Sequence record: MK817115.1
Direction: 5' to 3' (one strand)
Length of the DNA stretch: 64,000 nucleotides
Origin: Escherichia phage vB_EcoM_phAPEC6
Under the pieces are notes generated by a model, which worked only from the letters and a program-made list of their open reading frames with translations, had not been told where the DNA came from and did no database searches. Numbering within the stretch: the first letter of the stretch is position 1; every line of letters starts with the position of its first letter. Positions 14,733-57,418 of this stretch are shown here, piece by piece. Made by a program: the position numbers and the translations under genes.

Positions 14733-15283
14733 AATAGTTCCTTATACATATGATGTACTTTACAAATCTCATTATAGTATTTCATATCAATGTCATTTGT
14801 ATTAAAAACGGAAACAGACAATACTGCTAACTTATCAATTAAGTAATTATTATCGGCGTACTGTTTTAACTTATTGAACATATAGATGCATTTTATACTT
14901 AATTCATCATGCAACACACTGTTCTGAAAAATATTCTCTTCAGTATTAGGAGATAAGTAATCTTCAATTATATACGATAAACTACTATCGCAATCTTTAT
15001 AGATTGAAATTGATGGATGTAATGTGTCATACATTACACTAAACAGATCACCGTCATATGTGGATATTAAACTATTATTGGAAACAGTAGGATGATAATA
15101 TTTCAGTACTGAAAACTTTGAACAATCAGTGCAGTAAAAATGATCCATCCCTCGACGACTTTCGTATGAGAATAGTTTACTTGTATATTCAATCCCTTTG
15201 GTGCGACGGATTGTTTCATGCATTTCTGCACATTGCATTAAAATTACCATACGTTCAAACGCAAGATCTAAATCATCGTACAT
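14723..15283 (-). CDS. FamA paralog
   Basis: core motif EENIFQNSVLH. Confidence 0.6.
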   Translation of the reverse strand: MYDDLDLAFERMVILMQCAEMHETIRRTKGIEYTSKLFSYESRRGMDHFYCTDCSKFSVLKYYHPTVSNNSLISTYDGDLFSVMYDTLHPSISIYKDCDSSLSYIIEDYLSPNTEENIFQNSVLHDELSIKCIYMFNKLKQYADNNYLIDKLAVLSVSVFNTNDIDMKYYNEICKVHHMYKELLCQ

Positions 15284-15464
15284 AACGGATATCCTTCTTC
15301 AACGAATTAATATATTCCAAAATAACTTGTTCCTGATATTGGGTTCCCAAGTACATCAGTACTTTCAACTCTTTGAATTCAGTACTATATGAGTCTGTTT
15401 GCATCATTCTAGTAGAATATATATTGAATAGTTTAGCAATATCATCTTGGTCTATTATTTTCAT
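15273..15464 (-). CDS. FamB-like small protein
   Basis: C-terminal YLGTQYQEQVILEYI motif; dispersed copy inside FamA array. Confidence 0.55.
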   Translation of the reverse strand: MKIIDQDDIAKLFNIYSTRMMQTDSYSTEFKELKVLMYLGTQYQEQVILEYINSLKKDIRYVR

Positions 15465-15660
15465 TAACCCTCTTCTGTATTAGTTCCTGTAAGTGCTGAA
15501 TATAACCCTTCATTGCAACATCCTGTTTGTTAGAGCCAACGAAGAACAAGAGCTTAAAGTCATGGTAATCCATTTTTGGTTTAGTAGTGAACCATATGTC
15601 CCACACTGCACTCACAGTTCTCATGTATTCAATTCGATTAAATGTTTTTGAATACTTCAT
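15442..15660 (-). CDS. FamB-like small protein (divergent)
   Basis: FVGSNKQDVAMKGYI variant of FamB motif. Confidence 0.5.
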   Translation of the reverse strand: MKYSKTFNRIEYMRTVSAVWDIWFTTKPKMDYHDFKLLFFVGSNKQDVAMKGYIQHLQELIQKRVNENNRPR

Positions 15661-16174
15661 CGATGTTCATTGCCAATAAGTTAATATACAAATTACTGTT
15701 AAATGCTATCTGCAATTCCATATAGAACTGAATGATTGCATAGTCAGGGTCAGTACACGATAGTTGAAAACACTGTTCGTCGAATGCATTGTAATTGTAC
15801 TTAGGGATGTGAATTTCACGCTTCAAATCAGGTTGCCCCCACTTCATCGCGTACACACCAATGTTATTGTTCTTTTTCCTTTTCTTAAATGTTAATTGTT
15901 GAATATTTCCTGCGTTATCCAGGAAAATAGAATTATTCGACACAGGTGCACCAATAGAAAACAATGATGTATCAATTACGTGTTTCTCACGTACATCACA
16001 CTTCTGAAATGCACCTGTACCCTGTAATACACGATGAAAATTGTACTTCTCATTAACAACAGTACTAGGATCAATTAAACCAGTACTGCATTTTTTGAGT
16101 ACTGGTACGATGATACGAATCTTTTTTGATAAATCTTGTAATGCATCAAAGTCATTGATGTTAACTTTCATCAC
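15638..16174 (-). CDS. FamA paralog
   Basis: motif DEQCFQLSCTD. Confidence 0.55.
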   Translation of the reverse strand: MMKVNINDFDALQDLSKKIRIIVPVLKKCSTGLIDPSTVVNEKYNFHRVLQGTGAFQKCDVREKHVIDTSLFSIGAPVSNNSIFLDNAGNIQQLTFKKRKKNNNIGVYAMKWGQPDLKREIHIPKYNYNAFDEQCFQLSCTDPDYAIIQFYMELQIAFNSNLYINLLAMNIDEVFKNI

Positions 16175-27882: not shown

Positions 27883-28275
27883 CTAATCTTTCCATTTAAT
27901 AGGATACTCCTTTCCTTGTACTATATATGACAAAATCCATCCGTAATGAATAGGATGATTTTTGTCTGAATCAGGAATAAAATATAAAGCTGTACTTGGA
28001 TTATGACTGAATAAATCTTTATTGTCAAATGTAAAATGTGATAATATAATTTTCCTTGCACTTGGACGAATAACATTCTTAACACTGAACTCTGAACCTT
28101 TGTATTTCTCCGATAATTCAAATAATGCATCTGTAATTAAATCACTGATCTCTTGGATTACAAAATTCTGATAAAATGCATTAATCTCTTTTAACTCTGT
28201 ATACAATTCACTTCTGGTATTCAAAAGAAATATTACTTTTTTAAGATCCTGAACTATTTCTGGATTCATATTCAT
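27883..28275 (-). CDS. hypothetical protein
   Basis: ORF-track ORF; weak INAFYQNFVIQ motif. Confidence 0.5.
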   Translation of the reverse strand: MNMNPEIVQDLKKVIFLLNTRSELYTELKEINAFYQNFVIQEISDLITDALFELSEKYKGSEFSVKNVIRPSARKIILSHFTFDNKDLFSHNPSTALYFIPDSDKNHPIHYGWILSYIVQGKEYPIKWKD

Positions 28276-28507
28276 TTATCTCATTCTGTATCTTAAGCAT
28301 CAAAATTTGCATATTAATTTTTTGTACAAGGTGCTTGATAAATTTCTGTGCCATTTCTTCTTGTTCTTTTGTACCAAGATAAAATAACAGATTAAATTCT
28401 GATAATCGCAAAGAAAAATCTTCATCACCACCCTTTAAACAAAAATCCCTGTACTTTGTAGCGTACAAATATTGGTTTACCTTTTTATAATACCCTGTGT
28501 TTTGCAT
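28241..28507 (-). CDS. FamB-like small protein
   Basis: YLGTKEQEEMAQKFI motif. Confidence 0.5.
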   Translation of the reverse strand: MQNTGYYKKVNQYLYATKYRDFCLKGGDEDFSLRLSEFNLLFYLGTKEQEEMAQKFIKHLVQKINMQILMLKIQNEINEYESRNSSGS

Positions 28508-28695
28508 ACTATCTCCGTTCGCAACGAATTTATATAATAATGAACAAATTGTTCTTGTGAACGTGTTCCAAGAAAAATAAACATATCAAACTCTGTTGTT
28601 TTTAAATTCAATGCATCTTTTGTAAAATTCCTGTTGAATTCCCTGTACTTTTGGGTCTTCCATTCTTGATTAATTGTCTTGTATATCGATTTCAA
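28477..28695 (-). CDS. FamB-like small protein
   Basis: FLGTRSQEQFVHYYI motif. Confidence 0.5.
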   Translation of the reverse strand: MKSIYKTINQEWKTQKYREFNRNFTKDALNLKTTEFDMFIFLGTRSQEQFVHYYINSLRTEIVCKTQGIIKR

Positions 28696-28996
28696 TGATT
28701 CTCCCTGATGTACCTTGTATTAGCTTATCATACATATCGAGCATCACTTTTTGAATACTAATTAGTACTGGCATCGTGCAAATATCAATGTCGTATACTA
28801 AGCTGTACTGGAATAATTCATCTTCCTGCATTTGTACTAAATTAGGTAAAGGATAATTGTCTGCCTCTTCATCCTGGTACTTGAAATGCATAACACCATC
28901 CTTTTTGTACAAAAGAATGTCAATATCACCTAACTCATCAGCATAACCAAAAATACATATACTCGATGTTTTTGCTATATTAAATTTCATCTCCAC
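28670..28996 (-). CDS. FamA paralog
   Basis: core motif EDELFQYSLVY. Confidence 0.6.
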   Translation of the reverse strand: MEMKFNIAKTSSICIFGYADELGDIDILLYKKDGVMHFKYQDEEADNYPLPNLVQMQEDELFQYSLVYDIDICTMPVLISIQKVMLDMYDKLIQGTSGRIIEIDIQDN

Positions 28997-29232: not shown

Positions 29233-29291
29233 AATTTTTACCCTATGATTAACGTTAGTGTACTATATCAGTAATGAAAAGTACTGTCAAG

Positions 29292-29696
29292 CTAGTATTG
29301 CACTGTTCTAATGAAAGTACCTTTACTCATGGATTTAAGCTTATGAACCTCTTCCTGCATACCCTTAATTAACCCTAAAGGTATAGGTAAATCATGTACT
29401 AAGCTGTACTGAAAGTATTCTTCTTCAGATAAAGTACTAACATCTGGAACGCCAATTTTAGTTATATAATCTTGATGTGTTGACCAATAAATTATATCTT
29501 CAGTACTATTGTACTCCCCATATACTGAACAATATTGATGAATATCTTTCCTGTACCCTTGAGCAATAAAGAACTTATCTAATGCATTACCAGCATTAAT
29601 AGAATTTACTTCGATTGTCACAGTACTTGAGCTTGTATAACTCTTAATATTATCAGTACTCTTAATACTCAACGATGTGTTCTTCATAATCACCAT
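29292..29696 (-). CDS. FamA paralog
   Basis: core motif EEEYFQYSLVH. Confidence 0.6.
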   Translation of the reverse strand: MVIMKNTSLSIKSTDNIKSYTSSSTVTIEVNSINAGNALDKFFIAQGYRKDIHQYCSVYGEYNSTEDIIYWSTHQDYITKIGVPDVSTLSEEEYFQYSLVHDLPIPLGLIKGMQEEVHKLKSMSKGTFIRTVQY

Positions 29697-30006
29697 TAGG
29701 CTCCTGTTTAGATTCTTTCATTAGTACTATCATCTTATGTACTAATGGCATAGGAAACTCTAAATCCCATACTAATGATTCCTGAAAGTATTCCTCTGGT
29801 GATAAAGTACTTAAATCTTTAATATCAACGTGCTTGTATATTTTATTTTCGTAATTAACAAATGATATATATAAATCACTAACATAAGAATCATAGGTAA
29901 TTGTGAATGGTTTACCCTTGTAATCCATTACATCTCTACATAGACTACTTTTGATATATGTATGTTCAAATGATTTATATACCTTGAGTTGTATATTAGT
30001 TTTCAT
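29662..30006 (-). CDS. FamA paralog
   Basis: core motif PEEYFQESLVW. Confidence 0.6.
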   Translation of the reverse strand: MKTNIQLKVYKSFEHTYIKSSLCRDVMDYKGKPFTITYDSYVSDLYISFVNYENKIYKHVDIKDLSTLSPEEYFQESLVWDLEFPMPLVHKMIVLMKESKQEPNGDYEEHIVEY

Positions 30007-30256
30007 ATTTCTCTTTATTAGCTTGTTTGGTTTTATAGTGAATTAAATCTATTAATGTAATCAAGTACAACGTCAAATAGTACTCTTGTTGATCTGTACC
30101 TAATGATACAAAGAACTTGTGCTCATAGATTAAAACCTGTTTCTCTTCAAATGGACATTTAATCCTCTGTATAGGCTTAAGTAAATGATAGTACTTATTA
30201 AATCTATGATACATTTCTAGTTCTGTCAGTACTTTCATATTAAACACATACTCCAT
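29996..30256 (-). CDS. FamB small protein
   Basis: motif SLGTDQQEYY; start of 28-gene tandem array. Confidence 0.55.
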   Translation of the reverse strand: MEYVFNMKVLTELEMYHRFNKYYHLLKPIQRIKCPFEEKQVLIYEHKFFVSLGTDQQEYYLTLYLITLIDLIHYKTKQANKEKYEN

Positions 30257-30461
30257 TAGCAGTAGCAGTACTTAAAGCACTCAAATACCTCTGTACGGCT
30301 TGCTCTTGATGATCTGTACCTAAAAGTATATACACCCATAATTCATTGTAGTGTACATCTTCTGTATAAGGGTTGTTGTAACTTTTTGATAATATAGCAT
30401 CAAATTCAGATGCATAATCCCTTGTGAACTTAAACATATCTTGTTGTGTTATGATTCTCAT
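30240..30461 (-). CDS. FamB small protein
   Basis: motif LLGTDHQEQAV. Confidence 0.6.
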   Translation of the reverse strand: MRIITQQDMFKFTRDYASEFDAILSKSYNNPYTEDVHYNELWVYILLGTDHQEQAVQRYLSALSTATANGVCV

Positions 30462-30673
30462 AACTTTTCCTGTATAAGCTTCTTAAGTATTTCTATGTGT
30501 GAATTAACAGTTCTTTCTTGATGCTGTGTTCCTAAGAGTGTCAGTACTATCATCTCTGAACGCAAAAGATTTTTTTCAAGTTCACTTATATCAGTTCTTG
30601 AATCAAGTGCCATATATTTGTGATTATTCTTCCTGAATAGTGCCAAGTACTCTTGATTTGATATTTCCTTCAT
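30458..30673 (-). CDS. FamB small protein
   Basis: motif LLGTQHQERTV. Confidence 0.6.
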   Translation of the reverse strand: MKEISNQEYLALFRKNNHKYMALDSRTDISELEKNLLRSEMIVLTLLGTQHQERTVNSHIEILKKLIQEKL

Positions 30674-30900
30674 AGTTTATTCCTGATGCCATTTAAAAGT
30701 GCTCTAATATGCTCATTGACAAATCGCTCTTGGGAATCTGTTCCTAGAGTGAGTAGCAATCTTAAATCTGAACTTTTGATGTGATATTCTAAATCATTCT
30801 TTGATTCTTGCATCAGTTTCTTAAAGGATGAGAAGTTTGCAGCCATTAGTTCAATGTATTCTGCTGTTCCTAGGGGTTTGTGTGTGTGCTGTCTGTGCAT
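30670..30900 (-). CDS. FamB small protein
   Basis: motif TLGTDSQERFV. Confidence 0.6.
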   Translation of the reverse strand: MHRQHTHKPLGTAEYIELMAANFSSFKKLMQESKNDLEYHIKSSDLRLLLTLGTDSQERFVNEHIRALLNGIRNKL

Positions 30901-31112
30901 TTTAATTGTATTACCCTTTTGAGTGTATTAATGTAATTATACACATTGGCTTCTTGATAGTTTGTTCCTAGAGTAGCTTGAACGTAGATTTCATTTAACT
31001 TAATAATTTTATCAGAATCTGGAAGTTTTGATGTGTTAATGGCAAATAACTTCGAAAACAGTCCATTTATGATTGTTAGGTATTCTACTTCGGTAATGAT
31101 TCGCATTTGCAT
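30870..31112 (-). CDS. FamB small protein
   Basis: motif TLGTNYQEANV. Confidence 0.6.
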   Translation of the reverse strand: MQMRIITEVEYLTIINGLFSKLFAINTSKLPDSDKIIKLNEIYVQATLGTNYQEANVYNYINTLKRVIQLKCTDSTHTNP

Positions 31113-31324
31113 TGGATAAACCTTTTTAGTTCATTGATGTAATCATTAATATTGCATTCTTGATAGTTAGTCCCTAGTGTAGCTTGAACATAGATTTCAC
31201 TTACTAGAATACTTATTTCATCATCTGGTAATTTCATGCTTTTTGTTATAAACAGCTTTAGAATTAAACTACTTAATAGTTGGTTGTATTCTGTGGGTGA
31301 AATGATTTTCATTTGCATTTGCAT
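31085..31324 (-). CDS. FamB small protein
   Basis: motif TLGTNYQECNI. Confidence 0.6.
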   Translation of the reverse strand: MQMQMKIISPTEYNQLLSSLILKLFITKSMKLPDDEISILVSEIYVQATLGTNYQECNINDYINELKRFIQCKCESLPK

Positions 31325-31530
31325 TTTCTCAGTACTGATTCTTTAAGTTCATTAATGTAGCACTCTACATATTCTTCTTGTAGGTTTGTTCCGATATGTA
31401 ACAGTACTCTTAAATCTGCTCTCAGTACTTCTTTATCATCTTCATCTATATCAGACAGTGTTATGTTTAAGAATTTACTTGAACTCTCTATAAGTAATAT
31501 TACTGAATCACCTTTGCTTAAAATTTTCAT
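31309..31530 (-). CDS. FamB small protein
   Basis: motif HIGTNLQEEYV. Confidence 0.6.
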   Translation of the reverse strand: MKILSKGDSVILLIESSSKFLNITLSDIDEDDKEVLRADLRVLLHIGTNLQEEYVECYINELKESVLRKCKCK

Positions 31531-31738
31531 AATCTCTTTTTGCTTTCCTCGCCAAAAGGTACATATACGATTCTTCGTATTGTGCTTGGTAGTTTGTGTT
31601 TAAGAGTCGAAACAACTTCTGTTCTGCTAGAACGAGTTGCTTATCTTCATAACAACGATAGCGTATCAACTTTTTGTATTCGATGTTGATTACATCCATT
31701 ACTATAAGCCCATGTTCATCATCTGTCAAGTGTTTCAT
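31508..31738 (-). CDS. FamB small protein
   Basis: motif LLNTNYQAQYE. Confidence 0.55.
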   Translation of the reverse strand: MKHLTDDEHGLIVMDVINIEYKKLIRYRCYEDKQLVLAEQKLFRLLNTNYQAQYEESYMYLLARKAKRDYENFKQR

Positions 31739-31977
31739 GCATTTTTTCTTTTTCTTATATGTTTAGTTAAAAGGTATATTAGTTTTCTATTGTATTCTTC
31801 CTGATAGTTTGTTCCTAATAGTGCAAGAAGTTTTGCTTCAACTAAAGCTAATTGACGTTCTTCAAATGTGTGTTCCAGTATGTACTTGGGGTTTGATTTT
31901 TTAGCGTAAGCACTATTAGTCTTCATTACAATCTTATGATATTCATTAGCAGTTAGGATTTTTAAATACTTGATCAT
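31735..31977 (-). CDS. FamB small protein
   Basis: motif LLGTNYQEEYN. Confidence 0.6.
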   Translation of the reverse strand: MIKYLKILTANEYHKIVMKTNSAYAKKSNPKYILEHTFEERQLALVEAKLLALLGTNYQEEYNRKLIYLLTKHIRKRKNA

Positions 31978-32197
31978 GTATCTTTTCCTTTATAGAGAAT
32001 TTAAGATATCGAAGCATACTTTCAATGTAATACTCTTGTCTGTCAGTGCCAAGAAAGTACATGAGTTGAATGTATAAAACTTCTGCACTCCTTTCCGCTG
32101 GAGACTTGTTTGTGTCGTTTGGAAGTTGATTTGTATGTTTTCTTGATTTAATTAGTCGTTCTTTTAACTCATCGTCTGTTAAGTATTTCATTTGCAT
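31946..32197 (-). CDS. FamB small protein
   Basis: motif FLGTDRQEYYI. Confidence 0.6.
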   Translation of the reverse strand: MQMKYLTDDELKERLIKSRKHTNQLPNDTNKSPAERSAEVLYIQLMYFLGTDRQEYYIESMLRYLKFSIKEKIHDQVFKNPNC

Positions 32198-32423
32198 TTA
32201 CTTTTTCCTTAATAGTGATTTTAAGATATCTAATCATACGTGCAACATATTCCTCTTGTCTATCAGTTCCCAGAAGATATGGTAGTGATTGGAATAATAC
32301 TTCTGCACTCCTTTCTGCTGGGGTTTGGTTTAGGTCAATTGGACGTTTATTGGTATATCTCTTGGCACGAACTAATCTCTCGACGTATTCATTATAGGTT
32401 AAGTATATCATTTCATTTTGCAT
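32169..32423 (-). CDS. FamB small protein
   Basis: motif LLGTDRQEEYV. Confidence 0.6.
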   Translation of the reverse strand: MQNEMIYLTYNEYVERLVRAKRYTNKRPIDLNQTPAERSAEVLFQSLPYLLGTDRQEEYVARMIRYLKITIKEKVNANEILNRR

Positions 32424-32643
32424 TTACTTTTTCCTTAATACTCATTATAAGATGTTCAATCATATTTTGAACCATAAATTCTTGTTTATCAGTTCCAAGA
32501 ACGTATGGTAGCTTCTGAAACAATACATTTGCAGATACTTCAGATATTGATTGATTTGGACCGAACTTAAGAGTAATGTTTTTGGTTTTTAACATCTTCT
32601 CTTGAAATTCTTCATTCGTTAAGTATATCATTTCATTTTGCAT
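32413..32643 (-). CDS. FamB small protein
   Basis: motif VLGTDKQEFMV. Confidence 0.6.
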   Translation of the reverse strand: MQNEMIYLTNEEFQEKMLKTKNITLKFGPNQSISEVSANVLFQKLPYVLGTDKQEFMVQNMIEHLIMSIKEKVNAK

Positions 32644-32859
32644 TTACATTCTCTCATATATATTTTGGGTTAAAAGGTCAATCCAGATTTCCACATATCG
32701 TTGTTGGTGTTGCGTCCCTAACAGTACACCCAACTTAGCTTCACACTCTAATAACAATCTGGTTTTGTATGGTAGACTTTGGAATCCTATAGTAGCATCT
32801 AATTTGGTAATTGCATAGTTGATTCGGATGAATCTTTCTTGCAATGTGATGTTGATCAT
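32644..32859 (-). CDS. FamB small protein
   Basis: motif LLGTQHQQRYV. Confidence 0.6.
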   Translation of the reverse strand: MINITLQERFIRINYAITKLDATIGFQSLPYKTRLLLECEAKLGVLLGTQHQQRYVEIWIDLLTQNIYERM

Positions 32860-33119
32860 TTCTTAGTACACCTCAGTGGTTGGGTCATTTGATGAAAGTA
32901 CAGCTTACCTCTGATTTCCAGTAGCAACTCCGCGATTAAGCGATTTACTTCTGTATCTTGATAGTTTGTTCCTAAGAATACACCCATCTTTAACTCACGC
33001 ATCATAATCATTTTCTTACTGTGTTGAATTTCTGGGTTGTGATAGATTGTATTACGTTTGTGCGTAATTTTTGTCATACGCTCGGTATATTCATCTTTAC
33101 TTAAATTGATCATTTGCAT
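32856..33119 (-). CDS. FamB small protein
   Basis: motif FLGTNYQDTEV; start at Met10 (MQMINLSKDEY) behind GAGG RBS, track ORF to 33146. Confidence 0.55.
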   Translation of the reverse strand: MQMINLSKDEYTERMTKITHKRNTIYHNPEIQHSKKMIMMRELKMGVFLGTNYQDTEVNRLIAELLLEIRGKLYFHQMTQPLRCTKK

Positions 33120-33148
33120 GTTCATCAACCTCACATTTATTTTCAATA

Positions 33149-33388
33149 CTATTCTTTAGTTTGTAGATATAGTTTTCTTCCAATATATCTCTTAAGTGCG
33201 ATTATGTATTCATCTACATAATACTCCTGATAGTTTGTTCCTATGAATGCACCCACCTTTAACTCAAGTTTCATAATCATCTTATTTCCGTGTTTAATGA
33301 CTTCTCCGTGATGGATTTCATTAAGTCCAGGTGCAATTTTTACCAGGCGTTCTTTATATTTTGCTTGAGATAATTTAATCATTTTCAT
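33149..33388 (-). CDS. FamB small protein
   Basis: motif FIGTNYQEYYV; start at Met10 (MKMIKLSQ) behind AAGGG RBS, track ORF to 33415. Confidence 0.55.
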   Translation of the reverse strand: MKMIKLSQAKYKERLVKIAPGLNEIHHGEVIKHGNKMIMKLELKVGAFIGTNYQEYYVDEYIIALKRYIGRKLYLQTKE

Positions 33389-33389
33389 G

Positions 33390-33620
33390 TTAATTACCCT
33401 TACATTTATTTTCAATACTATTCATGAGTTCTATAAGATAGTTTTCTACCTTACCTTCCTGATAGTTAGTCCCTAGGAAGTTGCACAACACGGCTTCTAT
33501 GATTTTGATTTTCCTGATATCAGGCTTCAATCTTTTGTTATTGAATATTTGAATCCTTATATCTCTGGATGCATTTAAACGTTTTTGATATTCATGGTAA
33601 GTTAAATTAATCATTTTCAT
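33390..33620 (-). CDS. FamB small protein
   Basis: motif FLGTNYQEGKV. Confidence 0.6.
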   Translation of the reverse strand: MKMINLTYHEYQKRLNASRDIRIQIFNNKRLKPDIRKIKIIEAVLCNFLGTNYQEGKVENYLIELMNSIENKCKGN

Positions 33621-33835
33621 TTACGTTTAACCTCTCGCTGGAGGGCATCAATTAACATCAGTACAGCATTCTCTTGATAGTTTGTTCCTAAGACTGAAAG
33701 CATCTTTATCTCATTTACTAAAATCAACTTCTTTGAGGGTTCAATAATGTGACTATCATAAACGGCCTTACGTGCTGGATAAGTTTTCGCCAGTATAACA
33801 TAAAATTCGTCTTTACTTAAATTAATCATTTGCAT
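33617..33835 (-). CDS. FamB small protein
   Basis: motif VLGTNYQENAV; AAGAGG RBS 9 nt upstream of ATG. Confidence 0.6.
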   Translation of the reverse strand: MQMINLSKDEFYVILAKTYPARKAVYDSHIIEPSKKLILVNEIKMLSVLGTNYQENAVLMLIDALQREVKRK

Positions 33836-34044
33836 TTACTTTTAACCTCTTTCTGTAGAGCGTCAATCCATAGATCCACATACATTTGTTGATAGTTTGT
33901 GCCTAAGAGTGCACCTACATAGAGTTCAGTTACTAGTGCGTGCTTAAGGTTAGCTTGGATGCTCTTATCGCTTGATAAGATTTTCCTTCTGCTGGTGCAT
34001 GTTTTCAGGAGTCTGATGTATTCAAAGCCTTGTAAATTTCTCAT
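33826..34044 (-). CDS. FamB small protein
   Basis: motif LLGTNYQQMYV. Confidence 0.6.
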   Translation of the reverse strand: MRNLQGFEYIRLLKTCTSRRKILSSDKSIQANLKHALVTELYVGALLGTNYQQMYVDLWIDALQKEVKSKCK

Positions 34045-34256
34045 ATTTTGGATACCACCTTGTTACGTAAGGCACTTAACAATACGTCAGTGTAGATGTT
34101 TTGATAGTTTGTCCCTACGAAAGCACCCAACTTCATTTCAGCTATTATAACACATTTGTCCTCTTGTGCAATAGATTTGTTTAACACAATACTATACACT
34201 TTTGATTTGATAGTTTGTAACCTCCAATGATACTGAAACTCATTTAGTGTTATCAT
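34041..34256 (-). CDS. FamB small protein
   Basis: motif FVGTNYQNIYT. Confidence 0.6.
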   Translation of the reverse strand: MITLNEFQYHWRLQTIKSKVYSIVLNKSIAQEDKCVIIAEMKLGAFVGTNYQNIYTDVLLSALRNKVVSKI

Positions 34257-34491
34257 TCTCTCGTCTCCATATCTCGGTTCTAATGTGTTGACATTGTGCT
34301 TCGATGAACATATCTATTGATTTGGCAATTGCTTTTTTATCAGTGCCTGTCATCAGTACAAGCATCTCTGCCTCACTATGAATTAAACGCATGATATCAT
34401 AGGGTAATATTTCAGATACAGTGTCATAGTGTTTCTGTGCCAGTGTCTGTAATAGTTTACAATACATTTTGTGATTTAGTCTGTGTCGCAT
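34240..34491 (-). CDS. FamB small protein (divergent)
   Basis: motif variant LMTGTDKKAIA. Confidence 0.5.
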   Translation of the reverse strand: MRHRLNHKMYCKLLQTLAQKHYDTVSEILPYDIMRLIHSEAEMLVLMTGTDKKAIAKSIDMFIEAQCQHIRTEIWRRENDNTK

Positions 34492-34748
34492 TGTTTATTC
34501 CATTCTCTTCTGGCTTGACGGGTTTTATCTGATATTTCGTTTCTCAATGCAGCGATATATCGTAGAGTGAACAGTTCTTGATAGTTAGTCCCTATGAATT
34601 TATTAAGATATACATCAGCGTTGACGATATCAGCTTCACGGGAATTATAAAGTTTATTGTTCGTGCGGAGGGTGTTTAGAAGAGAGAAGAGGGCAGTCTG
34701 ATACTCCACTCCTGATAAAATCTTCATGTTTTGTGAGCAAATAATCAT
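34476..34748 (-). CDS. FamB small protein
   Basis: motif FIGTNYQELFT; true start probably Met8 near 34727. Confidence 0.55.
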   Translation of the reverse strand: MIICSQNMKILSGVEYQTALFSLLNTLRTNNKLYNSREADIVNADVYLNKFIGTNYQELFTLRYIAALRNEISDKTRQARREWNKQCDTD

Positions 34749-34968
34749 CTAGTTTATCCTGTATAACATTCGTTAATTGTTCGATATATTCTGTGCAAAA
34801 CTTATCTTGATATTGAGTCCCCATAAAGTACAGCAACCATAGCTCATTAACTTTAGCTCGCATTTGGTTCCATGTAAGGCTGGGGTCACCGTAGACTATC
34901 CTTGTGATGGGGGTTAGTTTACGAATTATAGTTTCAAATTCATCATCAGTTAAGTGTTTCATTTGCAT
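34654..34968 (-). CDS. FamB small protein with 3' extension
   Basis: motif FMGTQYQDKFC; ORF continues ~30 codons past the usual family C-terminus and overlaps downstream gene out of frame. Confidence 0.5.
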   Translation of the reverse strand: MQMKHLTDDEFETIIRKLTPITRIVYGDPSLTWNQMRAKVNELWLLYFMGTQYQDKFCTEYIEQLTNVIQDKLDDYLLTKHEDFIRSGVSDCPLLSSKHPPHEQ

Positions 34969-35177
34969 TTGTCCCTTATTAAATCAGTGAGGGCAACTAT
35001 GTGTGCAACAACATACTCTTCCTGAAAGTTCGTCCCCAGTACAGCCATCATGCGTATATCGGTGGTGTTTATCCTGTGTTCCCTTACACATAAACCTTCT
35101 GTGTGAGGAAGTGTAAAATATTTGTTTATTGCAGCAACGATAATTTTATTCTTCTCGGAGTTACTTAAATGTTTCAT
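34959..35177 (-). CDS. FamB small protein
   Basis: motif VLGTNFQEEYV. Confidence 0.6.
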   Translation of the reverse strand: MKHLSNSEKNKIIVAAINKYFTLPHTEGLCVREHRINTTDIRMMAVLGTNFQEEYVVAHIVALTDLIRDKCK

Positions 35178-35386
35178 AGTTTACTCCTGATATAATTCTG
35201 AAGTGCAATTAAGTATTCCCCTACATAATACACCTGAAAGTCTGTATCAAGGAATGCACCCATAAGTAAATCTTTTTCTAATACCCTTGATAAGTTAAGG
35301 TCTGCATTTGAAAGGTATATAAGTAAGATTTCACCCTGTGCGGAATTGAAACGTTTCTTATATTCTTCTGGTGTTAAAAAAATCAT
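35174..35386 (-). CDS. FamB small protein
   Basis: motif FLDTDFQVYYV. Confidence 0.55.
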   Translation of the reverse strand: MIFLTPEEYKKRFNSAQGEILLIYLSNADLNLSRVLEKDLLMGAFLDTDFQVYYVGEYLIALQNYIRSKL

Positions 35387-35598
35387 AATTTGCTCCTGAT
35401 ATATTTCTCAAGAGATGACAAATACTTTTCCTCATAATACTTCTGATAGTCTGTTCCTAAGAATGCACCCAATAGTATATCATTTTCCAATACCTCGGCT
35501 AAGTTTAAATCAGAAGTCTCTTCGTATATTATGAGGATTTCAAGTTGTCTGGCAGCGATGCGTTCAGTATATTGATATGAGTTTTCTATAATAATCAT
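35383..35598 (-). CDS. FamB small protein
   Basis: motif FLGTDYQKYYE. Confidence 0.6.
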   Translation of the reverse strand: MIIIENSYQYTERIAARQLEILIIYEETSDLNLAEVLENDILLGAFLGTDYQKYYEEKYLSSLEKYIRSKL

Positions 35599-35804
35599 AA
35601 TTTACTCTTTATATCTTGAATTAAAAATCGAATCCATTCTTCAACATAATCTTCCTGATGGTTTGTGTTCAGTACAGCCAACATGCGGATCTCTGCTCTT
35701 GCAACTTCAATTTCAGTTTTAGGAAGGTCTTTGCTGATATCCACCATTAAGTCCATGTATTTCAAGATAAGACCGTATGATTGGGTTCGTGTTATAGTTT
35801 TCAT
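35595..35804 (-). CDS. FamB small protein
   Basis: motif VLNTNHQEDYV. Confidence 0.55.
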   Translation of the reverse strand: MKTITRTQSYGLILKYMDLMVDISKDLPKTEIEVARAEIRMLAVLNTNHQEDYVEEWIRFLIQDIKSKL

Positions 35805-36001
35805 TGTTTCCTCGTGGACAATATTTTATTTTTCAATGTATCCATATATTGAATCACCCATCTTTCCTGATAGTTAGTTCCCAAAGTAATCAAAAGGTAT
35901 AACTCCATTCGTTCTACGTGTGTGTCTGTATTATAAATCTTTGTGAAGTTTTTACGTAACAGTGATTGATATTCTTCTTTATTTAAAATACGCATTTTCA
36001 T
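35801..36001 (-). CDS. FamB small protein
   Basis: motif TLGTNYQERWV. Confidence 0.6.
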   Translation of the reverse strand: MKMRILNKEEYQSLLRKNFTKIYNTDTHVERMELYLLITLGTNYQERWVIQYMDTLKNKILSTRKQ

Positions 36002-36195
36002 AGTTTACTCGTTATATCTTCAATTAAATACCAAATCCAATCGTTGACATACCTTTCCTGAAAGTTAGTTCCAATGAATAGTGCCATAATTAATTCACGC
36101 TTATAGGCAATACCACGGTCATGGGACTTATACATTATCATAGCCATGTTATTGATAAGTCTTTCGTGGTGCTGTTCTTTAGTTAAAATACGCAT
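35998..36195 (-). CDS. FamB small protein (first gene of array)
   Basis: motif FIGTNFQERYV; start at Met11 behind AAGGGAG RBS (track ORF to 36225). Confidence 0.55.
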   Translation of the reverse strand: MRILTKEQHHERLINNMAMIMYKSHDRGIAYKRELIMALFIGTNFQERYVNDWIWYLIEDITSKL

Positions 36196-36225
36196 AGGGA
36201 CTCCCTTAAAATTATTATCGATCAT

Positions 36226-36444
36226 ATTTTATACGATTCATATAAAAAGTCAATAACATTTTATTCGTAATACCCCTTTATCGAAGTCGCTAAGGTTACC
36301 CGCCCTTTAGCCCCCTACGCATTTTGCCATAGTCCAATCCCTTTTATTTCAAAAAAGTCAAGGGATTACCTATGCATTTTTTTAACGCATAATTTTAAAA
36401 ACGCCTTGACTTTTTTCTGAATCAGTACTAGATCCCTTTACGCA
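36226..36444 (-). promoter_or_regulatory. intergenic control region upstream of FamB array
   Basis: noncoding ~220 bp with minus-strand TTGACT-16-TAAAAT promoter-like site and repeated AAAAAGTCAA, TACGCATT and CCCTTTA words. Confidence 0.4.
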
Positions 36445-36654
36445 TTAATCCTTCGTTACGCTAACGATTATCTGTGTATCCCCGTAGTCCTGCCATACTT
36501 CCACGCCATCGGTCGCCCTGGTTAGTCGTGCTGTCATCTGCTTAATGGTCTTAGGCTTTAGTGGAACCTGTTGCAGTACTGTACGCATAGCATCATTGAC
36601 GTTATCATGTACGCCTGCAATAGTACCTAGAACGCTGTATACTGTATAGAACAT
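36445..36654 (-). CDS. hypothetical protein
   Basis: ORF-track ORF; AGGAG RBS; hairpin AGGCCGC/GCGGCCT immediately upstream. Confidence 0.5.
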   Translation of the reverse strand: MFYTVYSVLGTIAGVHDNVNDAMRTVLQQVPLKPKTIKQMTARLTRATDGVEVWQDYGDTQIIVSVTKD

Positions 36655-43039: not shown

Positions 43040-43250
43040 TTTGTATTCCTCTTTGTGGTTGATGTAAGTATTATACTCGTTTAATTTCTATTGTCAAACT
43101 ATTTTATCAGGGGAGGTTTTCGTATGTCTTACTCCTGGACTACTTAACGGGGTTACTTATTTCGTTCCCCGTCCTGATGTAAAACATTATACTTGATTCT
43201 AAGTACAATGCAAGTACTTTTTAAAAATAGTTTTCAGTACTTGATAGTAC
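43040..43250 (-). promoter_or_regulatory. tandem promoters separated by ~80-nt structured leader element
   Basis: two -35/-10 pairs; between them ACGGGG..CCCCGT and CAGGAG..CTCCCCTG stems; element recurs near 49950 and 52910. Confidence 0.5.
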
Positions 43251-43356
43251 TAGCCACCAGCATATAATAGATACATTTATGCACCCTGTGGGTTAGATTG
43301 TTTCTATGCATATATAATAGCAAAGGGACTGACCGGAGTCAATCCCTTTTTTAAAT
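43245..43356 (+). ncRNA. conserved intergenic element, candidate small RNA with bidirectional terminator (copy 3)
   Basis: same core and terminator hairpin as copies 1 and 2. Confidence 0.3.
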
Positions 43357-43360
43357 CTTT

Positions 43361-43510
43361 TTAAACTTGTTTTGGGTTGCGATATGTGATAGCGTTCGGG
43401 TACATTTGTTTAATGTTATTCCATGCCTGGTTAACATTGTAACCACTTGATCGAATCAGTTGGTTACTTCCTACGCCCTGAAACACTACTTCGAATAAGA
43501 ATTCTTTCAT
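43361..43510 (-). CDS. small hypothetical protein (49 aa)
   Basis: hand-translated ORF, ATGA overlap with upstream gene; below track cutoff. Confidence 0.35.
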   Translation of the reverse strand: MKEFLFEVVFQGVGSNQLIRSSGYNVNQAWNNIKQMYPNAITYRNPKQV

Positions 43511-44705: not shown

Positions 44706-44768
44706 GATTTCTATCCTCAGTTAAGATATAAAATATTATACACTATCTTTCAGTACTGTCAATACTTT

Positions 44769-45026
44769 TTATCTCATAGATCTATGCCAACAATTACGCG
44801 GATCTCTTTTAAAAGTACTATCATGATCCTCCTGGCAAGTTATGCAATACTTACATCCCTTAACAGCCTGGCGGCGATTCTCAGGGATTTTATCGCCACA
44901 GTCGAGGCAATGTATCAGTGATTCTATTTGTGCGTTAATTTGCTTTCTAGCGTGGTTTACGGCGGCCTGAATCACTGCGTTAATCTCGTCTTGCTCGGCC
45001 CCGTCTTTCGCGAATCCTACAGCCAT
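44769..45026 (-). CDS. TraR/DksA-family C4 zinc-finger protein
   Basis: CLDC-x17-CITC with IPENRR between cysteines. Confidence 0.6.
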   Translation of the reverse strand: MAVGFAKDGAEQDEINAVIQAAVNHARKQINAQIESLIHCLDCGDKIPENRRQAVKGCKYCITCQEDHDSTFKRDPRNCWHRSMR

Positions 45027-45223
45027 TATTTTAACTTTTTTCTGTCATTGATTAATGCTTTCAGTACTATACTAATGATTTGCAATGATTCATCAATAAC
45101 TATAAAATTATTTTCTTTCATTAGATGATAGTTACCATTGATATTATATTCTAACGAGTACTGTTTACGTTTAATTTTTGATAATGTTTCTATTTGTTTT
45201 TGTACTGATTTCATGCTAATCAT
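45026..45223 (-). CDS. hypothetical protein
   Basis: ORF-track ORF; stop overlaps start of the zinc-finger gene. Confidence 0.45.
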   Translation of the reverse strand: MISMKSVQKQIETLSKIKRKQYSLEYNINGNYHLMKENNFIVIDESLQIISIVLKALINDRKKLK

Positions 45224-45328
45224 TGTTAAACGTCCTGTAACGCATTCTAACGAGATAAACGGTTTAGTACTGGCATTGTATAGGGTAATGGATTAAAGCC
45301 CACCAGCGTTAACCAGTGGGCTATAATC

Positions 45329-45472
45329 TTACATCTTGCGGATAATCTTAACAGTATCTTTCACCGATTTACCGTTTTGCTGACATTGTTCGATCATCGC
45401 GTATTGTTCTGCGGTCAGATCCTCGCCAGTTTTTGCCAGTACTGCATCGATGAATGAATCTAGTGCGATCAT
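45329..45472 (-). CDS. small hypothetical protein (47 aa)
   Basis: hand-translated ORF between cassette and terminator hairpin AGCCCAC..GTGGGCT. Confidence 0.4.
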   Translation of the reverse strand: MIALDSFIDAVLAKTGEDLTAEQYAMIEQCQQNGKSVKDTVKIIRKM

Positions 45473-45570
45473 TTTGTTTCTCTCTTAGGTTAAGTTAACT
45501 ACTGTTTATAAAACTTATTATACAGTACTATCAAACTATGTCAATATCTTTAATAGTACTGGTAATATAT

Positions 45571-45741
45571 TTTAGCGGTAGTCGTCGTATGCTTTATTCA
45601 CCTGGCGAATGTAACTTTCAAAGGCTTCGTCTACCGTTTCATACTCCCGAACATAATCACCATAGGAAACTACATACATCCCTTTTTGATCTTCAAACGT
45701 CATGATGATAGAATCCAGGCCGATGATTTCAGTTTTTGCGA
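45571..45741 (-). CDS. small hypothetical protein (56 aa)
   Basis: hand-translated ORF preceded by cassette. Confidence 0.4.
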
Positions 45742-46480: not shown

Positions 46481-46564
46481 GATTCGTTTCCTTATTACCA
46501 GGGGAAACCGTTTCCCCTCTCGATGTAAAACATTATACGCCAATTGAGATAGTTTGCAAGTACT

Positions 46565-46690
46565 TTTTAAAAATAGTTTTCAGTACTCAATACTTATATA
46601 ATAGATACACTTATGCACCCGGTGGGCTAGTGAGCTATCTCTCAATGAATATATAATAGCAAAATGGCTGACCGAAGTCAACCACTTTTT
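46565..46690 (+). ncRNA. conserved intergenic element, candidate small RNA with bidirectional terminator (copy 4)
   Basis: same architecture, hairpin variant GGCTGACCGAAGTCAACC. Confidence 0.3.
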
Positions 46691-46694
46691 TCAT

Positions 46695-46829
46695 TTATTT
46701 TTTAGCTTTCAGTACTGCCGCCTTTCGCGTCATGCCTTGCTTAATGTACTCCTTTACTTTCGCTTTACGTGCTTTCGCTTTATCTGCTTTCGTTTTAGGA
46801 GTACTGTAAATTAAACCGTTAGGATTCAT
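46695..46829 (-). CDS. small lysine-rich hypothetical protein (44 aa)
   Basis: hand-translated ORF. Confidence 0.35.
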   Translation of the reverse strand: MNPNGLIYSTPKTKADKAKARKAKVKEYIKQGMTRKAAVLKAKK

Positions 46830-46919
46830 TTAAATCACCATAAAGAATAGATAGGTTACTAACAATGCCGCGATCAATGCACCGATCACCGCTGAACTGT
46901 AATAAGCTAATGATTTCAT
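46830..46919 (-). CDS. small hydrophobic peptide (29 aa)
   Basis: MKSLAYYSSAVIGALIAALLVTYLFFMVI. Confidence 0.3.
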   Translation of the reverse strand: MKSLAYYSSAVIGALIAALLVTYLFFMVI

Positions 46920-47068
46920 TTTTTAGCCTGGAAGTAATGTTTAATTTGTGCGGCGGTCAGTGCACAATTACGCAGGAAGTTTTCTGTATAACTGCGGCGA
47001 GTACTGAAAGAGAATTGACCTTTGCCGTTACCGATAGTAACATCAAACCGAGCGTTGTATTGTTTCAT
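46916..47068 (-). CDS. hypothetical protein
   Basis: start at Met11 (MKQYNARF) after cassette; track ORF to 47098. Confidence 0.5.
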   Translation of the reverse strand: MKQYNARFDVTIGNGKGQFSFSTRRSYTENFLRNCALTAAQIKHYFQAKK

Positions 47069-47149
47069 TTTGTTTCTCCTGTTATTGGGGAGAATCATTT
47101 CTCCCCTTCATGTAAAACATTATACAGTACTAAAAACTAATTGCAAGTA
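47069..47149 (-). promoter_or_regulatory. promoter / 5' stem-loop / RBS cassette
   Basis: TTGCAA -35, TATAAT, GGGGAGAATCATTTCTCCCC hairpin. Confidence 0.6.
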
Positions 47150-47296
47150 CTATTTTTTAGATTTACGCAAACTTTCTACCATCTCAGGAGTAAGGCCAGG
47201 CGGGTAGGAAACCACTTCATCAACGAAACGTAAAGGGAATACCCCAGCGAAAGGTGAACATGCTTTCTTAGTATTACTCTTTTTTGATGCTTTCAT
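47150..47296 (-). CDS. small hypothetical protein (48 aa)
   Basis: hand-translated ORF with cassette upstream. Confidence 0.35.
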   Translation of the reverse strand: MKASKKSNTKKACSPFAGVFPLRFVDEVVSYPPGLTPEMVESLRKSKK

Positions 47297-47365
47297 TTCA
47301 TATTCCTTAATTAGTGGAGAGAATCATTTCTCCCCTTCATGTAAAACATTATACGCGTTTAAAAA

Positions 47366-54632: not shown

Positions 54633-54746
54633 CGTTTTCATCTCTCTTACAGTGTAGCGGGAAGTGTTCCCGCTCTCGATGTAAAACATTATACGCTTTT
54701 AAACATAGTTTGCAAGTACTTTCTACATGTACTTTTAAAATAGTTT

Positions 54747-54840
54747 TCTTTCTATATAGGAGTACTATTATTCAGTACTGCAACCATCCAGGGGAACTAT
54801 CTTTCTATATAGTAGTACTATTATTCAGTACTGAATCAAT
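54747..54840. repeat. direct repeat, 2 copies of ~36 bp
   Basis: CTTTCTATATAGGAGTACTATTATTCAGTACTG repeated ~60 bp apart. Confidence 0.55.
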
Positions 54841-54995
54841 CAACCAAATCACTACTACACCCCGTAAAACGGCCTCAGACGCATTCTAACGCATTAATAC
54901 ACCCAAGCTATACATTTGCACCATTCCAATCATTCCAGGGCTTTACGGGCCGTTTAAACGCGTTAAATTATTTTCAATTATTTTGTTTTTAGGTA

Positions 54996-55023
54996 TTGAC
55001 TCAGTACAGAAAAAGCGTATAAT
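54996..55023 (+). promoter_or_regulatory. plus-strand sigma70-like promoter
   Basis: TTGACT-16-TATAAT; followed by GGGTGCGG..CCGCACCC inverted repeat. Confidence 0.45.
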
Positions 55024-55210
55024 TACTATATAGACGCGAGAAAGCGGAAACCCCAGAGGGTGCGGAATTACGCCCAAAATTCAAGATATAAAAAAAGGAT
55101 ACACTCCCGCACCCTAGCAGGTAAACGCACTTTCTCAGTACTGAAATATAGTACCATAGTCCGGCCCAGGATAGCAAGCAAATTAATTAAAACTTTTTTC
55201 ATCCAGGGTA

Positions 55211-55238
55211 TTGCTTTATTTTTCCAGTACTGTATAAT
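55211..55238 (+). promoter_or_regulatory. plus-strand sigma70-like promoter
   Basis: TTGCTT-16-TATAAT; followed by GAGAAAG..CCCACCGGGTGC..TTACGCCCAAAATTCA element shared with 55040-55100. Confidence 0.45.
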
Positions 55239-55469
55239 AGTTCCATCAAGTCGAGAAAGACTCAAGCCCACCGGGTGCATAGTTACGCCCAAAATTCAGT
55301 ACTAGATTATTTTTTAAAAATATTCATCCAGGCGGTTGACATTGCCCCCAGTTTATAAGATAATGATTCCAGATTCAGAAAAATCTAACTCCAGATACTG
55401 CGGGGAAACTATCCCCACGCGGTAGGGGAACTATTGGAAAAAACAAAATAAAATTTTGATTTAGCCGTC

Positions 55470-55600
55470 TATACTTCCAGACGTGTAACCATCTAGCCGT
55501 TTAGCCGTCCAAACGTCTAGCCATCCAGCCCTCCAGAAATCTAGCCGTTTAGCCGTCTAGATGGATAGCCATCTTTACTTCCAGACTTCTGGAGGGCTAG
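55470..55600. repeat. iteron-like repeat cluster with inverted repeat
   Basis: CTAGCCGTTTAGCCGTC twice, multiple TAGCC(G/A)T words, 11-bp inverted repeat GCCCTCCAGAA/TTCTGGAGGGC. Confidence 0.5.
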
Positions 55601-56823: not shown

Positions 56824-56838
56824 AGTATTCTCTATTAA

Positions 56839-57021: not shown

Positions 57022-57022
57022 A

Positions 57023-57413: not shown

Positions 57414-57418
57414 ATTAG

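Follow-up and report, generated by a model that had tools for sequence, protein, structure and literature searches.

The 64,000-nucleotide stretch of the Escherichia phage vB_EcoM_phAPEC6 genome analysed here (record MK817115.1, hereafter the window) carries on its minus strand, at 29,996–36,225 bp, a tandem array of 28 small genes that belong to a single family, FamB. We consider the chances about even that this array encodes an early panel of binding proteins for interaction with the host, which arose by lineage-specific tandem expansion. The anatomical description of the array is very probable, while the functional step, according to which the products are early-expressed small proteins that bind host components in takeover or counter-defence, is tentative and deserves less than even credit. 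It is nearly demonstrated that the copies share one scaffold, in which the core is hydrophobic, an N-terminal strand packs against the LGT segment and a T-x-x-Q/E box opens helix 3, and likewise that the surface residues and the net charge have diverged almost completely between the copies.

The FamB family and its genes

A preliminary description of this DNA had reported 28 contiguous minus-strand open reading frames (ORFs) of one family, four dispersed copies at 15.3–15.7 and 28.2–28.7 kb, and a common C-terminal block. All 28 ORFs were found in place and contiguous between 29,996 and 36,225 bp, and a profile hidden Markov model (HMM) built from them recovered each of the 28 (E-values of 9e-28 to 2e-17). 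When this profile was run against all 962 six-frame segments of the window, it also retrieved exactly the four dispersed copies with E-values between 1e-11 and 2e-5 (15,273–15,464, E 1.4e-11; 15,442–15,660, E 2.2e-5; 28,241–28,507, E 5.1e-6; 28,477–28,695, E 3.8e-10, all on the minus strand). With slightly different limits, these copies correspond to 15,276–15,479, 15,445–15,666, 28,244–28,585 and 28,480–28,719. Beyond these 28 + 4 copies nothing scored below 1e-3 in the six-frame translation of the window, apart from a 34-residue out-of-frame fragment at 33,100–33,201 bp.

The MAFFT alignment defined a core of about 70 residues, which begins with M-(K/R/I)-x-L-(T/S)-x-x-E-Y and ends with the consensus L-G-T-(N/D)-x-Q-E-x-x-V-x-x-Y-I-x-x-L-x-x-x-I-x-x-K. 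The C-terminal block had thus been read correctly: G49 is present in 29 of the 32 members, and T50, Q53 and L64 in 31 each, followed by L/I48 (28/32), N/D51 and I68 (26/32 each), K71 (23/32) and E54 (22/32). Apart from this pattern the proteins, which are about 8 kDa in size, have little in common. Pairwise identity of the paralogs is 25% on average and 57% at most, the isoelectric point (pI) ranges from 4.4 to 9.9 and the net charge at pH 7 from −6.5 to +8.8; about half of the members have a pI of 8.6–9.9, and eight to ten are acidic or neutral. Tandem Repeats Finder (TRF) detected no DNA-level tandem repeat in the array, the repetition being visible at the protein level only, and this together with the low identity indicates a protein-level family of old duplicates rather than a DNA repeat. 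Adjacent copies are nevertheless more similar to each other (32.5% identity vs approximately 25% for the rest; none of 10,000 permutations reached the observed value, p < 1e-4) and 15 of the 28 genes have their closest paralog right next to them, which shows that the array grew via local tandem duplication.

The longest-ORF rule over-extends the start of several FamB genes. For gene 28, the first of the putative operon, the true start is at 36,195 bp (MRILTKEQ) and not at 36,225 bp, since the ATG at the latter position is absent in phages fEgEco12 and WPEC3; the annotations of slurp01, 121Q and G17 agree with the shorter form. Listed in the direction of transcription with refined starts, protein lengths and HMM E-values, the genes are 28 (35,998–36,195; 65 aa; 4.7e-21), 27 (35,801–36,001; 66 aa; 1.4e-20), 26 (35,595–35,804; 69 aa; 5.3e-23), 25 (35,383–35,598; 71 aa; 1e-19), 24 (35,174–35,386; 70 aa; 1.3e-22), 23 (34,959–35,177; 72 aa; 1.2e-25), 22 (34,654–34,968; 104 aa; 3.4e-27), 21 (34,476–34,727; 83 aa; 2.2e-20; start MKILSG refined after the slurp01 annotation), 20 (34,240–34,491; 83 aa; 2e-17; with the most deviant motif, MTGTDKKAIAK), 19 (34,041–34,256; 71 aa; 3e-24), 18 (33,826–34,044; 72 aa; 6.4e-27), 17 (33,617–33,835; 72 aa; 4.2e-25), 16 (33,390–33,620; 76 aa; 9.2e-27), 15 (33,149–33,388; 79 aa; 9.1e-28; refined ATG), 14 (32,856–33,119; 87 aa; 8.7e-27; ATG refined after slurp01), 13 (32,644–32,859; 71 aa; 4e-22), 12 (32,413–32,643; 76 aa; 1.8e-21), 11 (32,169–32,423; 84 aa; 6.7e-24), 10 (31,946–32,197; 83 aa; 5.6e-26), 9 (31,735–31,977; 80 aa; 7e-22), 8 (31,508–31,738; 76 aa; 1.1e-19), 7 (31,309–31,530; 73 aa; 1.1e-22), 6 (31,085–31,324; 79 aa; 8.1e-26), 5 (30,870–31,112; 80 aa; 1.1e-25), 4 (30,670–30,900; 76 aa; 2e-22), 3 (30,458–30,673; 71 aa; 8.8e-23), 2 (30,240–30,461; 73 aa; 1.1e-22) and finally 1 (29,996–30,238; 80 aa; 1.4e-22; start MKVLTE refined after slurp01). 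According to the alignment, gene 22 has lost its normal stop codon, which adds 31 residues to the protein and produces a 74-nt overlap onto the next gene. In phage BF17 one FamB copy is split by a frameshift (locus L002 26,474–26,690). The stop loss and the frameshift appear to be signs of ongoing decay inside the array.

Selection on the FamB genes

Each gene of the window was aligned to its counterpart in seven relatives and the Nei–Gojobori counts were pooled. The ratio of nonsynonymous to synonymous substitutions (dN/dS, omega) of the array was 0.28–0.37 in the called frame vs 0.87–1.32 in the other two frames, which bears out the claim that these ORFs are coding. The same ratio was 0.12–0.18 for 12–16 genes on the side of the terminal repeat described below and 0.31–0.40 for 8–13 downstream genes in the region of another small-protein family, FamA. 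The omega of FamB is thus 2–3 times that of the repeat genes, that is, the family is constrained, yet more loosely. The ratio of nonsynonymous to synonymous polymorphism (pN/pS) was 0–0.2 at the core and motif positions (M2, L5, E9, E41, G49, T50, Q53, Y60, L64, and K71) and 0.5–0.77 at the variable surface positions, and the site-wise constraint tracks the predicted hydrophobic core.

Predicted fold and database relatives

Structures were predicted by AlphaFold2 with the family alignment for two members of opposite charge, the basic gene 15 (pI 9.7) and the acidic gene 25 (pI 4.4). Both models show the same three-helix bundle, with helices at residues 7–26, 32–46 and 53–77 in the former (predicted local distance difference test score, pLDDT, 96.5; predicted template modelling score, pTM, 0.82) and at 7–27, 31–45 and 52–70 in the latter (pLDDT 96.9, pTM 0.82), and in both a one-residue beta bridge links residue 3 with the threonine in GT. 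In the models the conserved LGTxxQE covers the loop before helix 3 plus the first turn of that helix, and the T-x-x-Q/E at the helix start looks like a helix N-capping box. The remaining conserved residues of helix 3 (V57, I61, L64, and I68) have the 3–4 spacing typical of a bundle core. Judged from the models, the conserved features of FamB appear to be structural, leaving the surface free to vary.

Among the PHROGs, phrog_4148 (function unknown) was matched by 31 of the 32 members (best E-value 9e-27, profile positions 1–72 of 74). Scans of the 32 members against Pfam-A, NCBIfam and PADLOC gave only scattered single-member hits with E-values of at least 0.0006, each to a different family, and neither a sequence-profile match nor a specific fold match to FamB was obtained in the PDB; the structural searches of the PDB, which cover many anti-defence proteins, gave no match to those either. 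An N-terminal likeness to the Hha/YmoA proteins (LTxxEY vs LTKTDY) was noticed by eye, and this kinship was rejected, as hhalign against Hha gave a probability of 8.8%, which is not significant. Membership in the helix-turn-helix class was rejected as well, since helices of 20, 15 and 25 residues run up, down and up again in the bundle and K71 is the only conserved basic position.

An exhaustive hmmsearch of 1.84 billion representative proteins returned 92 clusters at E ≤ 1e-3, nearly all of 52–122 residues. A word-indexed search gave 81 FamB clusters, many of them on contigs of approximately 340–385 kb, and their named sources were only Asteriusvirus-type coliphages, Salmonella phages or E. 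coli assemblies. Using eight distant members as queries, tblastn found Escherichia phages only. By these searches FamB is confined to Asteriusvirus and its uncultured relatives. Many of the records labelled Escherichia coli lie on contigs of about 343–359 kb, that is, on whole Asteriusvirus genomes inside bacterial isolate assemblies, which agrees with recent reports of lytic phages persisting in isolates.

One uninterrupted 269-codon frame (P0077), found in phages EC.P1 (PQ657772.1, 338,002–338,808) and UB (MH383160.1, 185,239–186,045), joins an N-terminal FamB domain to a C-terminal domain of approximately 200 aa, although the records annotate two genes there. Homologs of the C-terminal part with about 40% identity occur in Klebsiella phages RaK2 and K64-1, both of which are devoid of FamB. 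The fusion was discarded as a functional clue, the C-terminal domain being unmatched in Pfam and absent from the window. The 62 proteins of the phAPEC6 virion proteome include none of 7.5–10 kDa (PMC7247149); the reading of FamB as virion-packaged or ejected proteins is thus unsupported by these data, which weigh little here as mass spectrometry easily misses small proteins.

The terminal repeat boundary and the putative operon

The deposited genome of BF17 contains an exact 20,590-bp direct terminal repeat (DTR). Its position 1 aligns to 56,368 bp of the window and its last base (383,493) to 36,293 bp, so the segment 36,293–56,368 represents the DTR, which is present as a single collapsed copy in this assembly, and 36,293 bp corresponds to the right physical end of the packaged genome. 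Terminal repeats of about 20.5–21.5 kb have been reported for BF17 (PMC10059673) and Sharanji (PMC11895373), and the 20,993-bp DTR of fEgEco12 was confirmed by PhageTerm and restriction digests (PMC13070987). The record of vB_Ec-M-J annotates the DTR at 1–21,525 bp and has the first array gene at 21,624 bp, while the first array gene of fEgEco12 is at 21,091 bp; the array therefore starts 98–99 nt beyond the inner DTR boundary in the window (98 nt) and in both of these phages. A location inside the DTR, which characterizes pre-early genes of the T5 and SPO1 type, was accordingly not found for the first FamB gene in any of the three.

The G+C content drops from 0.36–0.40 within the repeat to 0.31–0.35 in the array, and the two regions are organized differently. 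The DTR contains 41 mostly monocistronic small genes, 35 of the 40 junctions are gapped by at least 40 nt (median gap 85 nt), and the gaps include 23 sigma-70 matches at 10/12 or better, 11 of which are perfect (TTGACA-N16-18-TATAAT). Such a promoter-dense layout is typical of early regions read by the host polymerase. In the 28-gene array, no internal gap reaches 40 nt, the median gap is −10 nt, and there are no sigma-70 consensus matches in such gaps.

On the minus strand, the last terminal-repeat gene (36,445–36,654) is followed after its stop codon at 36,445 bp by a terminator-like hairpin (36,351–36,416), in which a 13-nt perfect inverted repeat, AAAAAAGUCAAGG ... CCUUGACUUUUUU, runs into a U tract. 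Then come an unstranded G+C-rich block (36,270–36,330), in which the alignment of the BF17 end places the inner DTR boundary, a conserved sigma-70-like promoter (36,226–36,253, TTGACT-16-TAAAAT, 10/12 consensus matches), the Shine–Dalgarno (SD)-like AAGGGAG (36,201–36,207) and, 5 nt further on, the true ATG of gene 28 at 36,195 bp. This control region of about 250 nt is 95% identical across seven phages, in which the −35 element of the promoter is invariant and the −10 element is TAAAAT or TATTAT, and the predicted fold of 36,255–36,445 has a free energy of −47.7 kcal/mol (z = −2.98). The sequence 36,270–36,416, comprising the G+C-rich block GCGTAGGGGGCTAAAGGGCGGGTAACCTTAGCGACTTCG and the adjoining 13-nt inverted repeat, is nearly invariant in the seven phages, while their arrays differ by up to 15%; this G+C-rich block is a candidate packaging or terminus-defining site.

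The preliminary description had proposed one long translationally coupled operon driven from the 36.2–36.4 kb region, with genes overlapping by 4–30 nt; it mentioned neither the DTR boundary inside that region nor the earlier literature report of a tandem gene array in 121Q. The first proposal was strengthened, at the level of sequence, by the promoter, the hairpin, the gap-free chain, the ATGA junctions and the SD motifs. The second holds for most of the junctions, which overlap by 4–32 nt, but at three the genes adjoin without overlap or leave a gap (0 to about +30 nt), and one overlaps by 74–95 nt owing to the lost stop codon of gene 22. ATGA overlaps of 4 nt were found at 11 of the 27 junctions and overlaps of 10–74 nt at 13 more. 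SD-like motifs precede 17 of the 28 starts, and several of them (e.g. ATC AGG AGT AAA CTA TGA) are formed by the conserved I-R-S-K-L codons of the upstream gene, so each duplicated unit would bring along the signal that couples the next gene to it. Inside the array, the only terminator-like structure found was one weak stem of 5 bp. The gap-free chain continues into two overlapping FamA genes (29,292–30,006, minus strand; 114 and 134 aa, motif EEYFQxSLV), and the next gap of at least 40 nt is at 29,233–29,291, where another sigma-70-like promoter is located (29,262–29,290, minus strand, TTGACA-17-TATAGT). The two FamA genes are probably the last genes of the array's transcription unit, and this promoter likely marks its end. 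Taken together, the sequence features support a single translationally coupled unit of about 6.9 kb read by the host polymerase. As the promoter lies just past the DTR, we infer that the array heads the transcription units of the unique genome and is expressed early.

Variation among relatives and origin of the array

Megablast with the array region found 35 phage records, all of Escherichia or Salmonella jumbo phages of about 310–385 kb that belong to Asteriusvirus or are near to it, and all the genes under these matches are annotated as hypothetical proteins. The best match was slurp01 (100% coverage, 95.7% identity), and the window belongs to an Asteriusvirus jumbo coliphage of the PBECO4/121Q/slurp01 type. 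Orthologous arrays (121Q genes 319–341, slurp01 PSLUR01_00215–00243, G17_00585–00613, fEgEco12 g057–g084) occupy the same locus in the same post-DTR position with 82–100% coverage and 86–96% nucleotide identity, and fall into the same PHROG 4148. The comparison of array length suggested earlier did reveal variation: HMM counts of contiguous copies were 30 in slurp01, 29 in G17 and WPEC3, 28 in the window and in fEgEco12, 27 plus the frameshifted one in BF17, 26 in vB_Ec-M-J and 23 in 121Q, where the examined stretch has two dispersed copies in addition.

At 70% or higher identity, the FamB copies of nine genomes cluster into 47 orthogroups, 13 of which are present in all nine genomes, 8 in eight and 15 in three or fewer. 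Most of the paralogs are therefore older than the genus and have been kept individually, and this one-for-one retention favours non-redundant roles and speaks against a recent dosage amplification as well as against neutral filler. Compared with a single relative, individual genes form a mosaic of identities between 75% and 100%, which suggests cassette exchange between phages. Judging from its omega of 2–3 times that of the DTR genes, the 23–30 copies and the mosaic identity, the array is accessory in character, yet it is retained. A 4,666-bp contig (L011, Logan SRR22590157) represents an uncultured divergent relative of 30% G+C without nucleotide similarity to the window. It carries 14–16 tandem FamB genes with three interspersed FamA-motif genes, and the FamB proteins encoded there begin with a basic segment of greater length, e.g. 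MPHYKRTPTVVQRN.... The tandem arrangement of FamB is thus ancestral.

Proposed role of the FamB proteins and alternative explanations

In the model that we favour, one three-helix protein of about 8 kDa (PHROG 4148) has undergone an old, lineage-specific tandem expansion, resulting in a putative operon of about 6.9 kb with 28 FamB and two FamA genes. The sigma-70 RNA polymerase of the host would transcribe it from the promoter, which is situated 40 nt beyond the inner end of the left DTR, and the stop/start overlaps with embedded SD motifs would let ribosomes move from gene to gene. The products would be stoichiometric binders built on one scaffold, each copy with its own macromolecular partner, probably a host protein, and would serve accessory, not core, functions in taking over the host early or in countering its defences. 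The grounds for a binder panel are the adjacency to the DTR with its consensus host promoters, the conserved scaffold with a variable surface, and the analogy with terminal multigene families. In a stronger form, the array would be a single-scaffold repertoire of about 30 specificities per genome, and at least 47 orthogroups in nine genomes, each directed against a polymorphic host target, or an arsenal paired with FamA; we regard this form as unlikely.

Several observations weigh against the binder panel. The three-helix bundle is a generic fold, the conserved motif appears from the models to be structural rather than catalytic, and no structural or sequence relative that would give a functional hint was found in Pfam, NCBIfam, PADLOC or the PDB. 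No position of the FamB alignment had a pooled pN/pS above 1, hence the signature of an arms race is absent at the shared sites, and the surface values of 0.5–0.77 would also fit weakly constrained, inconsequential proteins. The overall number of promoter-like hits is at chance level (55 vs 58.5 expected), so the call of the head promoter rests on its position and conservation. The Asteriusvirus literature gives no function, fold, expression pattern, partner or phenotype for FamB, and no RNA-seq, transcription start site, ribosome profiling or infected-cell proteome data were found there for these phages.

The main rival explanation, which we consider rather improbable, is that each FamB protein pairs with one member of the co-expanded FamA family as its cognate partner, for example as a chaperone, an adaptor, or an immunity-type or inhibitor subunit. 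The copy numbers in the window are similar (32 FamB vs 27 FamA, the latter being a lower bound), the gap-free chain of the array ends in two FamA genes, the four dispersed FamB copies sit among FamA genes, and the association with FamA-motif genes persists in L011 even without nucleotide similarity. However, the two families of Asteriusvirus are largely in separate blocks, unlike the usual cognate two-gene modules, whose members are adjacent, the profiles are unrelated (hhalign probability 0.2%, by which homology of FamB and FamA was rejected as well), and the co-localization may merely reflect a shared plastic region.

The remaining alternatives are weaker. It is improbable that the array is largely dispensable duplicated DNA, tolerated or favoured because a capsid that has grown larger needs filling (the "ratchet" proposed by Hua et al., 2017), and that its products have little or no specific function. 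These authors took the tandem gene array of 121Q as an example of genome expansion by duplication (PMC5646251), and the relaxed omega of about 0.35, the copy number varying between 23 and 30, the frameshifted copy of BF17 and the stop loss of gene 22 agree with it. On the other hand, omega is clearly below 1 and frame-specific, the core and motif positions are strongly conserved among orthologs, and 21 orthogroups were kept in at least eight of the nine genomes in spite of a paralog identity of 25%. Start codons have been preserved along with the SD motifs and the promoter at the head, a relative as distant as L011 keeps the array, and neutral DNA of such age would be expected to have decayed to pseudogenes.

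Binding of nucleic acid by FamB proteins, either as transcription factors or as nucleoid or genome organizers whose copies recognize different sites, seems very improbable. A precedent exists in the small-protein expansion of the jumbo phage G (PMC7824862), about half of the members are basic, and the products would be early; but the eight to ten acidic or neutral members have pI values down to 4.4, the long helices (15–25 residues) form an up-down-up bundle and not a helix-turn-helix, and the conserved basic surface is limited to K71. Finally, the non-coding repeat that the preliminary description had named as an alternative, in which the motif-encoding ORFs would not be genes, can be dismissed with near certainty, since omega is about 0.35 in frame vs about 1 out of frame, TRF and Rfam were negative, the family is recognizable solely at the protein level and the AlphaFold models are of high confidence. 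An RNA element was rejected likewise after negative TRF, Rfam and tRNA scans.

Comparison with known systems

The host-takeover module of SPO1 and the pre-early genes of T5 encode small early proteins at the genome end and are read by the host polymerase from strong consensus promoters. The DTR of the window (36,293–56,368) has the same look, and the FamB array is its immediate neighbour. However, the SPO1 and T5 genes lie inside the repeat, are mostly unrelated and largely monocistronic, whereas FamB is outside it, forms one family and is predicted to be polycistronic. The MGF110, MGF360 and MGF505 multigene families of African swine fever virus (ASFV) and the terminal families of poxviruses have experimentally demonstrated roles in host range and immune evasion. 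Like FamB, they are tandem paralogs by the terminal repeats of a large linear double-stranded DNA genome, with copy-number variation, relaxed constraint and accessory character, but their hosts are eukaryotic and their proteins are larger and unrelated, and a comparable role of FamB is putative. Bacterial polymorphic-toxin loci carry arrays of immunity genes, which resemble the FamB array as runs of small, highly diverged paralogs with one scaffold and variable copy number. FamB differs in that it is found in a phage, no toxin partner was identified and neither its sequence nor its fold matches known immunity families.

In Bacillus phage G, a zinc-ribbon family has expanded to about 35 copies, for which a role as transcription factors or in nucleoid or genome organization was suggested (Iyer et al., 2021, PMC7824862). 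Both cases are very large lineage-specific expansions of a small protein of unknown function in a jumbo phage. FamB, in contrast, is a cysteine-poor three-helix bundle, the phage lineage and the host differ, and DNA binding, which is plausible there, is poorly supported here.

The locus itself is already known from public genomes, and lineage-specific expansion near a viral genome end is a known phenomenon. Hua et al. (2017) mentioned the tandem gene array of 121Q in one sentence (PMC5646251), which may refer to the FamB array, the adjacent FamA array or both, and the phAPEC6 paper repeats this point (PMC7247149). In the Asteriusvirus literature, no account was found of how FamB folds, how it is selected, how its putative operon is built or that it adjoins the DTR. 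New here are the fold, the frame-specific selection, the anatomy of the putative operon, its precise position at the edge of the repeat and the conserved association with FamA.

If the single-scaffold or FamA-paired repertoire were true, no larger panel of paralogs for counter-defence or host manipulation would be known from a phage, and it would be placed in the first operon past the DTR. Should 28–30 FamB proteins each bind a different host factor, they would provide a ready library of small, well-folded inhibitors of E. coli proteins, and phages would have their own equivalent of the terminal multigene families by which host range is set in ASFV and poxviruses. Asteriusvirus phages are under development for therapy, and uncharacterized genes that may interact with the host early in infection matter for both their host range and their safety. 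The array at the DTR boundary also offers a defined, testable transcription unit for the question of how a 350-kb phage begins its programme.

Neighbouring families and other observations

FamA genes extend on the minus strand from 5,392 to 30,006 bp and encode at least 27 proteins of 103–193 aa; this is a lower bound, as the window begins at coordinate 1 and the family may be larger. Their N-terminal halves are variable, and the C-terminal part contains (S/T)xxEEExFQxS(L/T)V with an invariant F-Q. FamA had no Pfam hits and matched PHROGs 9317 and 13866, both of unknown function. The third family, FamC, is located on the far side of the DTR (56,632–60,854, minus strand) and consists of about 18 tandem genes for proteins of 59–77 aa (PHROG 11711, function unknown) with the consensus M(H/N)KE(F/Y)Y...FNxCI...Y..IL.LI..Y. 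Thus, arrays of small paralogs that share one orientation lie to either side of the DTR. A 223-aa gene with the FamA-like motif EEELFMYSTV is embedded in FamC at 58,563–59,234 bp. Homology of FamB and FamC was rejected (hhalign probability 1.4%). FamB accounts for about a tenth of the window, and the three families together for about half of it.

Within the DTR, four stretches (43,040–43,506; 44,706–45,571; 46,544–47,365; 54,690–56,630) lack ORFs of at least 50 aa, and a sigma-70 promoter with perfect consensus is present in each of the first two. Searches for tRNAs and Rfam families gave no match in these stretches, which may hold very small ORFs or non-coding RNAs; the former are conceivable because BF17 annotates genes of 40–50 aa in its repeat. 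The outer 1.7 kb of the repeat is ORF-free in BF17, too.

Two adjacent paralogous genes of 388 and 402 aa are located on the plus strand at 60,939–63,320 bp. By their position, they probably correspond to the proteins annotated in BF17 as "regulator of chromosome condensation" or "DNA condensation" proteins, and such condensation proteins are present in phAPEC6 virions as several copies of about 41 kDa.

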